Positions 25,881 through 45,384 of a stretch of DNA of 64,000 bases are shown in pieces. Under the pieces are notes generated by a model. That model did no database searches and was not told the origin of the DNA. It was given only the letters and a program-made list of their open reading frames with translations. Made by a program: the position numbers and the translations under genes. Position 1 is the stretch's first letter. Every line of letters starts with the position of its first letter. Origin of the DNA: Octopus vulgaris (taxonomy: Eukaryota). The DNA lies in the NCBI GenBank assembly GCA_951406725.2, contig OX597818.1, forward strand, positions 56,854,001-56,918,000. Direction: 5' to 3'.

Positions 25881-27115
25881 ATCATCATCATCATCATCAT
25901 CATCGTTTAGCGTCCGCTTTCCCTGCTAGCATGGGTTGGACGGTTCAACTGGGTTCTGGGAAGCCAGAAGGCTGCGCCAGGCCCAGTCTCATCTGGCAAT
26001 GTTTCTACGACTGGATGCCCTTCCTAACGCCAACAACTCCGTGAGTGTAGTAGGTGCTTTTTAGTGCCAGACGAGGCTGGCAAATGGTCACGATCGGACG
26101 GTGCTTTTTACGTGCCACCGGTACAGGTGCCAGGCGAGACTGGCAAACGGCCACGATCGGATGGTGCTTTTTACGTGCCACCGGTACAGGTGCCAGGCGA
26201 GGCTGGCAACGGCCACGATCGGATGGTGCTTTTTATGTGCCACCGGTACAGGTGCCAGGCGAGGCTGGCAACGGCCACGATCGGATGGTGCTTTTTATGT
26301 GCCACCGGTACAGGTGCCAGGCGAGGCTGGCAACGGCCACGATTGGATGGTGCTTTTTACGTGCCACCGGTACAGGTGCCAGGCGAGGCTGGCAACGGCC
26401 ACGATCGGACGGTGCTTTTTATGTGCCACCGGTACAGGTGCCAGGCGAGGCTGGCAACGGCCACGATCGGATGGTGCTTTTTACGTGCCACCGGTACAGG
26501 TGCCAGGCGAGGCTGGCAACGGCCACGATCGGATGGTGCTTTTTACATGCCACCAGTACAGGTGCCAGGCGAGACTGGCAAACGGCCACAATCGGATGGT
26601 GCTTTTTACGTGCCACCGGTACAGGTGCCAGGTGAAGCTGGCAACGGCCACGATCGGATGGTGCTTTTTACGTGCCACCGGTACAGGTGCCAGGCGAGGC
26701 TGGCAAACGGCCACGATCGGATGGTGCTTTTTACGTGCCACCGGTACAGGTGCCAGGCGAGGCTGGCAACGGCCACGATCGGATGGTGCTTTTTACATGC
26801 CACCAGTACAGGTGCCAGGCGAGACTGGCAACGGCCACGATCGGATGGTGCTTTTTACGTGCCACCGGTACAGGTGCCAGGCGAGGCTGGCAACGGCCAC
26901 GATCGGATGGTGCTTTTTACGTGCCACCAGTACAGGTGCCAGGCGAGACTGGCAAACGCCCACAATCGGATGGTGCTTTTTACGTGCCACCGATACAGGT
27001 GCCAGGCGAGGCTGGCAACGGCCACGATCGGATGGTGCTTTTTACGTGCCACCGGTACAGGTGCCAGGCGAGGCTGGCAACGGCCACGATCGGATGGTGC
27101 TTTTTACGTGCCACT
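25881..27115 (-). mobile_element. RTE LINE 3' end with an expanded internal 62-bp minisatellite
   Basis: (cat)n tail and RTE terminal block at 25881-26050, followed by the tandem array. Confidence 0.85.
26052..27115. repeat. Tandem array of ~17 x 62-63-bp units
   Basis: Unit gatggtgctttttacgtgccaccggtacaggtgccaggcgaggctggcaacggccacgatcg; period 62 (e.g. 26401 and 26463). Confidence 0.95.
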
Positions 27116-30699: not shown

Positions 30700-31996
<1,297 letters not shown>

Positions 31997-34900
31997 TAAC
32001 TTAGAATAACTTAGAATAAGTTATTCTTGACTAGCTATAATGAATCTAGCAAAAGAACTGGAAAAAAACATCCGAGCTATCACCCACCGCCATCCACCAC
32101 TATTACCCCACTACACATGCCATTAAAAAGCAATCAAATAAACAAATCACCAAAACAATTAAAACCATCCACTCTCGCCTCAACATTTCTGCTTAATGCC
32201 CAAGGCATCAGCCCTTCCACCAATACACAAAAATGGAAGATAAGATTCCTGGAGGACTGGGTCGAGGCCCATCCAAACCACATCCCTTTCTTCGTCCTCA
32301 CTGAAACCCATCTTAGTGACCTCCACTTGGAAGCCGAGGTGAAAGTTAAAAATTTCAAAACCATTCGTGCTGATCGTGTTGGCAGAAGAAAGGGTGGGAC
32401 TGCCATTTATGTCCATGATTCATTCTCAACAGAAGCCATGAACATATTTTCGAATGGATACTGCGAAGCAGTCGCTGTATTCAGTCAAACCAACAACTTA
32501 ACAGTAGTTGGGCTCTACAGACCACCCCAAACGCCCCTACCATGCTTCAAGGAATGCCTCAACAGCATAAAGTGTTTCATTCAGCAGTGTCAACCTGACA
32601 ACATTTTAATGATGGGAGATTTCAACCTTCCCGGGGTTGACTGGTCTACAAACAGTCTGTCGCCAGGTTCTTCTCTCTCAACCCCTGACAGGGAGGCAGT
32701 GGAATCGCTTCTTGACTTCATGGATGACTTCTTCTTGTCCCAACTGGTACTCGAACCAACGAGATATCACAAAAACGTCTTAGACTTAATTTTCAGCAAT
32801 CACACTGATACTATCCACAATATTGCAGTGGAGAAAACCCTACTCTCCGACCATGACATGGTTCTCTGTGATCTGAGATTTCACTGGCCAAAATGCAAAA
32901 CAAATGTCATCCCTCCTGTTCATCCATTTGACACTATGGATTTCCACAATGCAAACTGGGAAGCGATCAATAATGATCTTGCACAAGTCGATTGGTCCTT
33001 CACGCACACATACACACCCACTAACATCAAAAAGTCCTGGCAGTCACTTGTAGACACCATCACGAACATATGTGCAAGACACACCCCATTAAGATCTGCA
33101 AACAAATCTAAGTGTCGAATCCCTAGAAATAGAAAATCTCTCATAAGGAAAATTAAAAGAATCAACAAAAAGATCAACATGCTGAAATACTGTCAACAGC
33201 AACACACCAACCTGACTGCCATCTCGTCGCTAGAGATTAAAAAACATAAACTCCAAAACAACATGATGTCTATCATCAATAGTCAGCGAAGAGCTGAAGA
33301 GGCCTGGGCCATTGAGAAGATCAAACTCAATCCCAAAGTGTTCTTTTCATTTGCAAAAAAACACAGAGTCACTGGTTCTACTGTTGGCCCTCTGATTGAT
33401 GAAAATGGTATTCTTCAAGACAATGCCAAAACCATGGGAGAAATATTGCAGAAACAATATTGCTCTGTTTTCAGCAATCCTGATATGACTGATCTGGGCT
33501 GTATCAGTGATGTTACTCCCCAATACACTTTATCGGACATAACATTTGGCGCTCCTGATGTCTTAGCAGCAATAAAGGAAATGAAGCATAATTCAGCAGT
33601 AGGTCCCGATAGGTTCCCTGCTTGTGTCTTGAAGATGTGTCAAAACCAACTTGCACCCCCTCTAGCCAATCTGTGGCGGAACTCATTGGATGCTGGATAT
33701 ATACCAGAAGACCTTCTATCCCAGTCTGTTGTCCCAGTTTTCAAAAAAGGAAACAAATCGCTTGCCGTGAATTACCGTCCAATCTCACTCACCTCTCATA
33801 TCATCAAGGTATTTGAGAGGGTGCTGAGATCGCGTATGACTCACTTCCTTGAGAGTCATAATATGCTGAACCCCAACCAGCATGGATTCCGTAATGGGAG
33901 AGATTGCCTGACGCAGCTACTGCATCATTTTGATGACATTTTGAGAGCCTTGGGAGAGGGTTCCAACACTGATGTCATCTACCTTGATTTCAGCAAGGCC
34001 TTTGACAGGGTTGATCATAAGATCCTTCTGAGAAAGCTGTCCAATATTGGTGTCACTGGAAAGCTGCTGCAATGGATCAAGTGCTTCCTCTCTAACAGAA
34101 CCCAACATGTTGTAGTCGAAGGAGTCAAATCCAGCCCAGCCAAAGTCAGCAGTGGTGTCCCACAAGGCACTGTGTTGGGCCCACTTCTCTTCATCATCTA
34201 CATAAATGATATTACTGACACCATCAAACACAGCAACATCAGAACCTTCGCTGATGATTCCAAGCTCCAGAAGGTCATCAATGGCGTGGATGACCGAATA
34301 AACCTTCAGTCAGACCTACTAGCTGTTGTCCAATGGGCGGAAAAGAATAACATGTTGCTAAATGAAGACAAATTCGAACTGATCCACTTTGGAAGGGAGG
34401 ACGCTCTGAAACTCCCATACTCTCTTCCTTCTGGAGAAATTCTCATGGCATCCAACAACATCAGAGACCTGGGAGTAACAGTGGACAACAACATAAGCTG
34501 GGCTACACATATAAGCAGCAAAGTTGACATGGCCCGCAGAATGTGTTCCTGGATTCTCAGAACCTTCCAGTCGAGAGATTCCCACGCTATTATCCTTCTC
34601 TTCTCCACTTTTGCCCGACCCCACCTTGAATACTGCTGTCCACTGTGGTCTCCCTACACAAAACAAAATATTATGAGAATTGAAGCTCCCCAAAGGTCAA
34701 TCACAAAAAAGATAGATGGCATGTCAGACCTTGACTACTGGGGTAGACTAGAGAAGCTGAAATTGTATTCACTCCAACGACGCCGTGAACGCTACATTAT
34801 CTGTATGATGTGGAAAATATTCCATCAGCACTGTCCGAATGATGTTGGCATCACCTTCAAAATGCATCCAAGGCTTGGACCACGTGCCATCCGTCCACAA

Positions 34901-35222
34901 CAAAAATCTAAATCGCATCACATAACGACAATACGGCACAACTATTTCACCTCAATTGGACCCGCTCTCTTCAACATTACACCAGGACACGTCAAAAAAG
35001 AAACTGACCACACAAAATTCAAGAAGTCTTTGGACAAATTCCTTCAAACAGTACCGGACAAACCATCCACACCCGGATATGTCTCCGCAAACAATAACTC
35101 TCTGCTCGAATGGGCCTTGGTGCCCAAATCCTGAACTGAAAGACTTCGCCAGGTGGTGCTATTAAGTTAGACATGGCCTGGGCCAATACTGGCCAAAAAC
35201 CTTTCTAAGTTATTCTAAGTTA
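31997..35222 (+). mobile_element. CR1-group non-LTR retrotransposon (ORF2 only) with 20-bp terminal inverted repeats
   Basis: Intact APE-RT ORF, short 3' UTR and a (TTCTAAGTTA)2 tail. The 5' end is the exact reverse complement of the tail. (TA)n on both sides. Confidence 0.93.
32027..35134 (+). CDS. LINE ORF2: apurinic-type endonuclease plus reverse transcriptase (1035 aa; first ATG at 32117)
   Basis: APE motifs LNAQG, LTETHL, GGTAIYV, YRPP, GDFN, LDL, SDH. RT motifs NYRPISLTS, QHGFR, YLDFSKAFD, GVPQGTVLGP, FADD, DLGV. CR1-type RPHLEYC..WSP and SLQRRR. No stops or frameshifts. Confidence 0.95.
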   Translation: MTSYNESSKRTGKKHPSYHPPPSTTITPLHMPLKSNQINKSPKQLKPSTLASTFLLNAQGISPSTNTQKWKIRFLEDWVEAHPNHIPFFVLTETHLSDLHLEAEVKVKNFKTIRADRVGRRKGGTAIYVHDSFSTEAMNIFSNGYCEAVAVFSQTNNLTVVGLYRPPQTPLPCFKECLNSIKCFIQQCQPDNILMMGDFNLPGVDWSTNSLSPGSSLSTPDREAVESLLDFMDDFFLSQLVLEPTRYHKNVLDLIFSNHTDTIHNIAVEKTLLSDHDMVLCDLRFHWPKCKTNVIPPVHPFDTMDFHNANWEAINNDLAQVDWSFTHTYTPTNIKKSWQSLVDTITNICARHTPLRSANKSKCRIPRNRKSLIRKIKRINKKINMLKYCQQQHTNLTAISSLEIKKHKLQNNMMSIINSQRRAEEAWAIEKIKLNPKVFFSFAKKHRVTGSTVGPLIDENGILQDNAKTMGEILQKQYCSVFSNPDMTDLGCISDVTPQYTLSDITFGAPDVLAAIKEMKHNSAVGPDRFPACVLKMCQNQLAPPLANLWRNSLDAGYIPEDLLSQSVVPVFKKGNKSLAVNYRPISLTSHIIKVFERVLRSRMTHFLESHNMLNPNQHGFRNGRDCLTQLLHHFDDILRALGEGSNTDVIYLDFSKAFDRVDHKILLRKLSNIGVTGKLLQWIKCFLSNRTQHVVVEGVKSSPAKVSSGVPQGTVLGPLLFIIYINDITDTIKHSNIRTFADDSKLQKVINGVDDRINLQSDLLAVVQWAEKNNMLLNEDKFELIHFGREDALKLPYSLPSGEILMASNNIRDLGVTVDNNISWATHISSKVDMARRMCSWILRTFQSRDSHAIILLFSTFARPHLEYCCPLWSPYTKQNIMRIEAPQRSITKKIDGMSDLDYWGRLEKLKLYSLQRRRERYIICMMWKIFHQHCPNDVGITFKMHPRLGPRAIRPQQKSKSHHITTIRHNYFTSIGPALFNITPGHVKKETDHTKFKKSLDKFLQTVPDKPSTPGYVSANNNSLLEWALVPKS

Positions 35223-35780
35223 CATATATATATGTATATATATATGTATATATATATATATGTATATATACATATATATATGTATATATATATGTATATA
35301 TATATATATATGTATATATATATGTATATATATATGTATATATATATGTATATATATATGTATATATATATGTATATATATATGTATATATATATGTATA
35401 TATATATGTATATATATATGTATATATATATGTATATATATATGTATATATATATGTATATATATATGTATATATATATGTATATATATATGTATATATA
35501 TATGTATATATATATGTATATATATATGTATATATATATGTATATATATATGTATATATATATGTATATATATATGTATATATATATGTACATATATATA
35601 TGTATATATATATATGTGTATATATATATATGTATATATATATATATGTAGGGATGTATATATATGTATATATATGCAGAGATGTAAATGTGTGTGCATA
35701 TATATATATATATATGTATACATGCACACACATATATAGATATAAATGTTTATATGTATACATGCATATATGTATATATT
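35223..35780. repeat. (TATATATATATG)n 12-mer higher-order TA array
   Basis: Direct inspection. Confidence 0.95.
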
Positions 35781-44627: not shown

Positions 44628-45155
44628 TCTCCTGTATACAGCTATGGTACGACCACACTTGGAATTCGCATCATCAGTTTGGAATCCCTATCTTGCTCAG
44701 AACATTGACCTCCTGGAATCTGTCCAGAGACGTGCACCCAAACGCATACCCTCCATCAGACACCTACCATATTCTGAGCGCCTTGTTTCCCTGGGCATGG
44801 ATTCACTGAAGCTCCGGCGTCTGGCGACGGACTTGGTAAACGCCCACAAGGTTATCAACCACCTCACCAACAACAACACTGAACACCTTTTTGATCTCCA
44901 TGTGTCTAACACACGTGGACATGCCTACAAAGTCAGAAAACAGCACAGCTCCCATGACTTTCGGAAACATTTTTTCACGCTCAGGGTTGCTGAAGCATGG
45001 AATAAACTGCCTGCATCAGTTGTTGACTGCCATGACACTGCATCCTTTAAGGCCCTCATGCTTCCCGAAATCCGTCGAAACTACACCTGATTATATATAC
45101 ACTTTAGATGAGTTGTAGTGCACCTGAGCACTGTACACAATTATTATTATTATTA

Positions 45156-45160
<5 letters not shown>
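44628..45160 (+). mobile_element. CR1 LINE 3' fragment with (ATT)n tail
   Basis: LYTAMVRPHLEFASSVWNPY..LESVQRRA..YSERL..L..RR..TRGH..FF..RV...WN.LP. Confidence 0.9.
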
Positions 45161-45201
<41 letters not shown>

Positions 45202-45384
45202 ATATAATCAATAATAACAAAGGGTAAAATTAATTAATTAACTAGTAATCAATAATTTCACCAAGTAGAATTCGGCATGAAAAAGGACCATTTCATGGTG
45301 AGGAAATAGCTAAGGTTCTTTTGGCTGCTATTTCTAAACTTCGGTATGTGGTAAAGCAAATCTTTGCTGAACCCTATTATAAAG

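Follow-up and report, generated by a model that had tools for sequence, protein, structure and literature searches.

A young, 5′-truncated CR1-like LINE in an octopus TA array carries an inverted copy of its own 3′ tail: a likely scar of a single insertion

How may a LINE come to be bounded by a perfect terminal inverted repeat (TIR)? The question is raised by an element lying within a 64-kb stretch of Octopus vulgaris DNA (the whole stretch that was analysed, hereafter the window), whose first 20 bases proved, as an earlier note on this DNA had claimed, to be the exact reverse complement of its two-unit 3′ tail (Table 1), the match being extended by 0 bases inward or outward. From base composition, the chance of such a repeat is ~5e-12 at fixed ends, or ~2e-6 when the 10-nt unit is counted only once, and this unit has no further occurrence within the 64-kb window. 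Our analysis indicates that the assembly does contain the inverted-end structure, which nevertheless does not represent a new TIR-bearing LINE family, and that the window copy is a 5′-truncated LINE with an ORF1 stub. With a probability of about 0.55, we read the locus as a young 5′-truncated copy of a likely two-ORF LINE, whose inverted end is likely the scar of one insertion in which both TA ends were primed on the RNA 3′ tail. A LINE whose insertion happens to leave it with perfect inverted ends can mislead TIR-based annotation, and priming by the second target end would, if the scar recurs, bear on the way in which the 5′ junctions and second strands of LINEs arise.

Table 1. Positions of the element, its junctions and the host array in the window
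Feature	Position	Strand	Basis or remark
Left part of host (TA)n array, scattered G variants	about 30701..31998		array detection
Inverted copy of the 3′ tail with its two units (apparent TIR)	31997..32016	-	exact match
Hairpin, loop 32014-32016	32003..32027	+	fold-back search and folding
ORF2: APE endonuclease and RT	32015..35134	+	family-derived from 32032; first in-frame ATG 32117
Junction bases	32028..32031	+	by-eye reading against the family loose end
Start of continuous family-contig match; last two bases of the T TTT TTA heptamer	32032..32033	+	by eye
Likely ORF1 C-terminus remnant	32034..32126	+	+1 frame relative to ORF2; comparison with relatives
3′ UTR, two predicted stem-loops	35135..35202	+	z -2.1 (modest)
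3′ tail: 10-nt unit x2, no poly(A)	35203..35222	+	sequence
Right part of host array	about 35223..35779		array detection

The copy, its ends and its target

The insertion inside a (TA)n array was borne out, TA being found on both flanks of the element. Both parts of the array display the same strand bias (G on the top strand), and thus the flanks are not inverted, while any target-site duplication can be defined over at most 2 nt in such an array. The left part counts 568 TA dinucleotides, and no TA spacer separates the inverted tail from the body of the element. Pure TA runs represent 2–5% of the rest of the window, the 3′ flanks listed for the closest related loci are not (TA)n, and the contig loose ends near the tail in one sequencing run (X9, see below) are weakly AT-rich (agreement 0.58).

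ORF2, previously described as complete and uninterrupted, is indeed open from stop to stop (1039 aa), except that its first six codons correspond to junction and not to family sequence. Its Pfam domains (PF03372/PF14529 at 75–283 and PF00078 at 579–822) are those of an endonuclease and an RT only, and no transposase or other TIR-binding protein was found. The 3′ UTR resembles that of a relative (L002) in both sequence and layout, and two-copy tails of 8–11 nt are also observed in close loci. The succession of APE and RT, as well as the short tandem-repeat tail after a stem-loop, agrees with an assignment to the CR1 group; note that this label relies on sequence motifs, since the RT tree contains no named clade reference. 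Structure matching retrieved L1 and R2 as the only LINE structures.

The 5′ junction contains more than the inverted tail. Along the top strand, the TA array gives way to a pair of tail units in reverse orientation; three bases come next, then eight that are complementary to the stretch before them, and four junction bases lead into the body of the element. The fold-back reported earlier (AGAATAA-G-TTATTCT) is present as a hairpin, but it is larger than the 7 bp that had been claimed, with arms of 11 bp (32003–32013 and 32017–32027) separated by a loop of 3 nt (-7.3 kcal/mol, z -4.2), and its second arm corresponds to part of the tail in forward orientation (35206–35216). By eye, bases 32025–32028 match the family sequence in register, and form a candidate microhomology, whereas 32029–32031 differ from it. 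A search for an internal template of the junction bases returned a best match of 9 nt at 32709, which was rejected as too short.

A young family with a likely second ORF

Family contigs were examined in four sequencing runs (X1, X9, X14 and X17), among which X1, X14 and X17 carry the organism labels A, B and C, respectively. On a larger scale, 84–91% of the element's sampled words were present in 20 of the 24 listed runs (11 studies, four organism labels). Over the 1780 bases of 32032–33811, the contigs of X1, X17 and X14 displayed 3, 5 and 5 differences with the window copy (>99.7% match), and upstream of 32032 they run on by 483, 481 and 207 bases with sequence other than the tail, X1 and X17 sharing one and the same loose end. 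In these three runs, the first-bin depth reflects cover from 32032 only, 31987–32031 being uncovered. These contigs show that the family is young and longer than the window copy, and that it does not normally begin with the inverted end. Recent activity, which had been deduced from the intact ORF, is therefore supported for the family by the 3 to 5 differences found in three runs, the window copy itself being incomplete. Having no 5′ UTR, nearly no ORF1 and no entire predicted frameshift site (see below), this copy would not be autonomous despite its open ORF2. No second copy was found within the 64-kb window, in which the best match was a distant CR1-like fragment (29% identity); in addition, the metagenome contigs searched with the family 3′-end pattern gave 0 matches, and 0 relatives were found among 54 candidate viral contigs.

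The same contigs bear on whether the junction could be an artefact of the assembly or its consensus, produced where the long TA array ends. Next to the junction lie a hairpin and 1.3 kb of almost pure TA, and no read or contig spanning it occurs among those listed (15 of 57 joints and 24 of 689 loose ends). However, the window contains no N, no frame error interrupts the ORF, and the sequence of the ORF differs from that of independent contigs by no more than 0.3%. To our knowledge, reads do not usually acquire a 20-nt inversion of a site located 3.2 kb from it, and we regard this origin as very improbable.

Relatives were collected by protein search (1081 hits, best 48–49% identity) and by contig scans (80 and 60 loci), and two relative clusters were linked to ctenophore records. 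In the RT phylogeny (FastTree, 132 RT rows, midpoint root, SH-like support only), the window RT falls within a 32-row clade with a support of 99, none of the 132 rows being a named clade reference. Eight clade loci reach the ORF2 start; one of them (L042), with a frame open to the contig end, was excluded, and in all 7 readable loci an ORF1 lies upstream and overlaps ORF2 in a -1 arrangement. The statement that the window element has no ORF1 could not be maintained, as 30 codons and a stop in the +1 frame stand at the position and in the frame of the relatives' ORF1 C-terminus and, when joined by eye to the family loose end, follow their Phe-Leu motif. The upstream reading of the window's own family consists of 30 letters and this +1-frame stub. 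Thus, the apparent absence of ORF1 results from truncation, the stub being located where the relatives' ORF1s end, and the family of the window copy likely has two ORFs. Regarding the type of ORF1, that of one relative (L001) displays a PHD finger, and the CCCH-like hits in the relatives' ORF1s are weak.

The ORF1/ORF2 overlap provides the more general result of this study, namely a testable site for ORF2 translation in the clade. In 6 of the 7 clade loci, T TTT TTA stands in the ORF1 frame 3–9 nt past the ORF2 frame opening, and the seventh displays A AAA AAC at 21 nt, so that an X XXY YYZ heptamer, conserved at the nucleotide level, lies ≤21 nt from the overlap start in 7/7. For comparison, a canonical heptamer is seen at 9 of the 2446 ORF1 codons lying upstream, the six loci with T TTT TTA hold no more than 7 occurrences of TTTTTTA in their 27,486 bases, and a single one of the 23 Phe-Leu pairs in ORF2 is spelled as the heptamer; the computed value of 2e-11 for the heptamer placement is a guide only, since the 8-codon window was chosen post hoc and the loci are related. 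A Met before the endonuclease is absent in 4/7 clade loci, and outside the clade a heptamer was also found in 10 of the 18 loci whose overlap is of the -1 type. Pseudoknot-free folding revealed no shared downstream stem in six loci (z -2.2 to +1.7) or in the window (z -0.7). This result counts against a frameshift, as does the ATG of the window ORF2 at 32117, which is near the ORF1 stop and could serve reinitiation, a process described for L1 and SART1 (available part of PMC2881922). On the basis of this sequence conservation, we predict that the clade heptamer acts as a -1 frameshift site.

The family loose end closes with five T, which together with 32032–32033 rebuild, by eye, T TTT TTA in the ORF1 frame, and consequently the window copy appears cut at the predicted frameshift site. 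Seen in one copy, this coincidence may or may not have a cause; a copy noticed for its intact ORF2 would in any case have to be truncated no more than a few hundred bases away from that ORF.

Altogether, these data contradict, for the main family, the proposal of a single-ORF LINE family with constitutive TIRs. Although the repeat is perfect and terminal in the window copy, the upstream continuation is tail-free in 3/3 runs with a contig listed at 32032, all readable clade loci have an ORF1, and 0 of 56 related loci carry their own tail inverted upstream, which leaves this proposal extremely improbable. The 56 loci, out of 140, were tested without tail calls and were those with the 3′ end and upstream room present (22 of them truncated inside ORF2); matches remained ≤14 nt, like those of the forward control, and the test is weak because most loci are distant and many may hold no true 5′ junction. 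A previous test of 72 loci, based on crude tail calls (several of them miscalled), also gave matches ≤14 nt, like the forward control, and 0 of the 15 X9 joints listed (of 57) start in the inverted tail. The one exception was locus L109, in which a long inverted repeat surrounds a LINE fragment, a structure unrelated to this scar.

These counts concern a wider possibility, in which tail-primed twin priming would recur in the family and provide many copies with TIRs, and truncations would cluster at the frameshift site through RNAs cut at paused ribosomes. Such recurrence would stem from the symmetry of (TA)n targets and from the UA that closes the tail, which together would make both break ends equally good primers. 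We consider it unlikely; if the scar did recur, it would directly indicate that the second target end can be primed on the RNA 3′ end.

A possible course of the insertion

The proposal that the symmetric TA target was primed twice on the RNA 3′ tail remains the best reading of the locus, provided that a snap-back step is added, and it is drawn from one copy. A bottom-strand nick would prime normal target-primed reverse transcription, with the cDNA reaching about 32032. The top-strand 3′ end, which ends in TA, may pair with the UA that terminates this RNA or another one, and would copy two tail units and three bases (31997–32019). This end would then fold back through 3 base pairs around a 3-nt loop and be extended by eight bases (32020–32027), before joining the cDNA, possibly via the 3–4 nt microhomology at 32025–32028, both strands being finally filled in. 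The inverted copy begins at the tail's last base, without right-flank sequence, as expected for RNA-end priming, and a snap-back of the top strand would produce the 11-bp hairpin observed. The lack of a TA spacer before the body, despite the TA sites available on the left, also argues for top-strand priming. On the other side, the three bases after the second tail unit require that the RNA tail was longer or that a slip occurred, and the top-strand model does not account for 32029–32031.

A single event on the bottom strand takes about as many steps. Here, the cDNA 3′ end would add a few bases, jump to the tail RNA (11 nt), snap back onto the cDNA start, copy the tail and anneal to the left TA end. 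This course explains both polarities of the tail sequence at the junction, and R2 snap-back junctions are reported to join the target to antisense element sequence (excerpts of PMC11371274 and PMC11331408). However, copying must halt exactly at the tail's last base, given the 0 outward extension, and a slip is needed for the two tail units. We regard this course as somewhat unlikely.

The inverted tail could also result from two independent insertions, i.e., a tail-only copy on the opposite strand beside the long copy in one TA array. The family is abundant, with 9655 contigs in X9 (the X9 depth giving no copy number), the depth climbs toward the 3′ end, a profile that numerous short copies would produce, and one joint connects the tail end back to 34932. 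In contrast, the two copies have no TA spacer between them, insertions spread uniformly over the left array would land on the junction at about 1 in 570 sites, and the hairpin arm would still require a snap-back. We judge this origin improbable and retain priming of both TA ends on the RNA tail within one insertion.

Comparison with known systems

For L1, twin priming is said to have been described by Ostertag and Kazazian in 2001. As presented in the available parts of PMC4245944, PMC10191854 and bioRxiv 2024.12.14.628481, it resembles our reading of the window copy in that a second target end primes and inverted element sequence lies at the 5′ junction. In classic twin priming, according to these same parts, priming takes place within the RNA and a 5′ segment is inverted but not duplicated, whereas in the window the 3′ tail is duplicated and inverted, resulting in a terminal inverted repeat. 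The classic L1 type was thus rejected for this locus, as the inverted segment is the 3′ tail and does not come from upstream of the truncation point, even though the process may work similarly. For L1, it was also reported, in the text accessible of each source, that both break ends are extended on different RNAs (bioRxiv 2024.12.14.628481) and that somatic inserts contain inversions and fold-backs (PMC10191854).

The window copy shares with two-ORF LINEs of the CR1 group (Jockey superfamily) an ORF2 with APE and RT, a repeated tail after a stem-loop without poly(A) and the 5′ truncation, and differs from them by the reversed tail at the 5′ junction. Among the CR1-group ORF1 types described in the sections available of PMC4120745, which together with PMC10294476 deals with LINE ORF1 types and mollusc LINEs, the PHD finger of the L001 ORF1 finds its counterpart, while the CCCH-like motifs of the relatives' ORF1s do not, this term being absent from those sections. 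Partial texts also mention recently active CR1 families in an octopus (PMC13282606) and CR1/L2 3′ overlaps of one to several bases (PMC6007223). Within the titles and abstract openings covered, from which most subscription papers and Repbase Reports fall outside, the literature contained neither a tail-derived terminal inverted repeat in CR1/L2 nor a slippery site in CR1, and the available parts of PMC2881922, PMC5009743 and PMC5443660 held no CR1 frameshift case. The closest parallels for the predicted site are Dictyostelium TRE5-A and TRE3-A, APE-type LINEs said in part of PMC5911963 to need a -1 frameshift for ORF2, and the only elements with such a shift in the review passages covered; they belong to a different lineage, and the heptamer conservation in our clade is evidence from sequence only.

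Zebrafish ZfL2 inserts, which belong to the L2/CR1 group, are similar to the window copy in carrying templated extra bases at truncated 5′ junctions, but the template is flanking DNA in ZfL2 and the own tail in the window copy (PMC4245944, in part). According to the same excerpts, ZfL2-1 5′ junctions display extra nucleotides and microhomology, and twin priming is invoked for 5′ inversions; in cultured cells, no 5′ inversion was obtained with ZfL2-1 itself, an absence that the authors attributed to its short overhang and that speaks against the tail-primed model. Finally, R2 transgene inserts, as far as covered by the excerpts of PMC11371274 and PMC11331408, are alike in having antisense element sequence and fold-back synthesis between the target and a truncated insert, and their junctions include snap-back and extra-template forms. 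They differ in that R2 relies on a restriction-like endonuclease, was followed in cultured human cells at rDNA and uses the cDNA end as primer, whereas the window holds an APE LINE of a genome assembly within a TA array. Overall, the window holds a truncated copy whose unusual junction draws on known processes.

Slippery heptamers at the ORF1/ORF2 overlap

As read from the sequence, a −1 slippery heptamer is conserved where the ORF1/ORF2 overlap begins, in all seven loci with a readable junction in the clade (the 32-row RT group that holds the RT of the window element), and in four of these seven the endonuclease has no preceding AUG. Among more distant LINEs outside the clade, a slippery heptamer was found in the −1 overlap of 10 of 18 loci, with the types C CCT TTA, A AAA AAC/T, T TTT TTA and T TTA AAC.

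Positions of heptamers and repeats (window position, or locus:position for related LINE loci)
Feature	Position
Clade heptamers	L001:2549, L003:2307, L004:134, L006:293, L009:1416, L010:627, L082:1360
Non-clade heptamers, set 1	L046:676, L047:1346, L054:318
Non-clade heptamers, set 2	L015:349, L038:969, L058:910, L091:1069
Non-clade heptamers, set 3	L032:1447, L094:480, L069:133
Window element	31997-35222
Stretch shared by contigs	35135-35198
Right flank	35223-35318
CR1-like 3′ fragment	44635-45206
62-nt tandem array	26064-27114
Related 64-67 nt units	2751, 16247, 23912, 53873, 58589
RT fragment within inverted repeats	L109:3221-5143

The 3′ end and right flank of the element

The shared stretch at the 3′ end of the element is the sole part common to many contigs, which differ on both sides of it, and among the joints listed for X9 (one of four sequencing runs with contigs aligned to the element) several jump from ORF2 to about 35145-35196. 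The likely source of both the shared stretch and the joints leading out of ORF2 is a related family, a SINE-like partner or a copy with an internal deletion. Another of the listed X9 joints, in which the tail end (35222) is linked via four bases to internal position 34932, is possibly a head-to-tail tandem or a template jump in another copy.

The right flank opens with a 12-nt palindrome whose first base is C, a base that is rare on the top strand of the host array, with 4 in 1296 on the left side. The first 48 bases of this flank occur twice.

Other repeats, loci and sequencing runs

Elsewhere in the window, the CR1-like 3′ fragment is old and distant (29% amino acid identity) and ends in an (ATT)n tail that continues into a TA array. 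The 62-nt tandem array holds about 17 copies of its unit (95% match).

Near-identical sequence to the element occurs under four organism labels in runs X1-X20, with 84-91% of its words present, and judged by sequence this may indicate close relatives or horizontal transfer. Eukaryotic-type LINE ORF2 was also present at sixty loci (L081-L140) within bacterial and archaeal genome records, mostly MAGs, most likely as host contamination. At L109, long inverted repeats (about 140 nt, three pieces) enclose the RT fragment together with a nested inverted repeat (129-nt arms), and the whole looks like a non-autonomous DNA transposon carrying a LINE piece.
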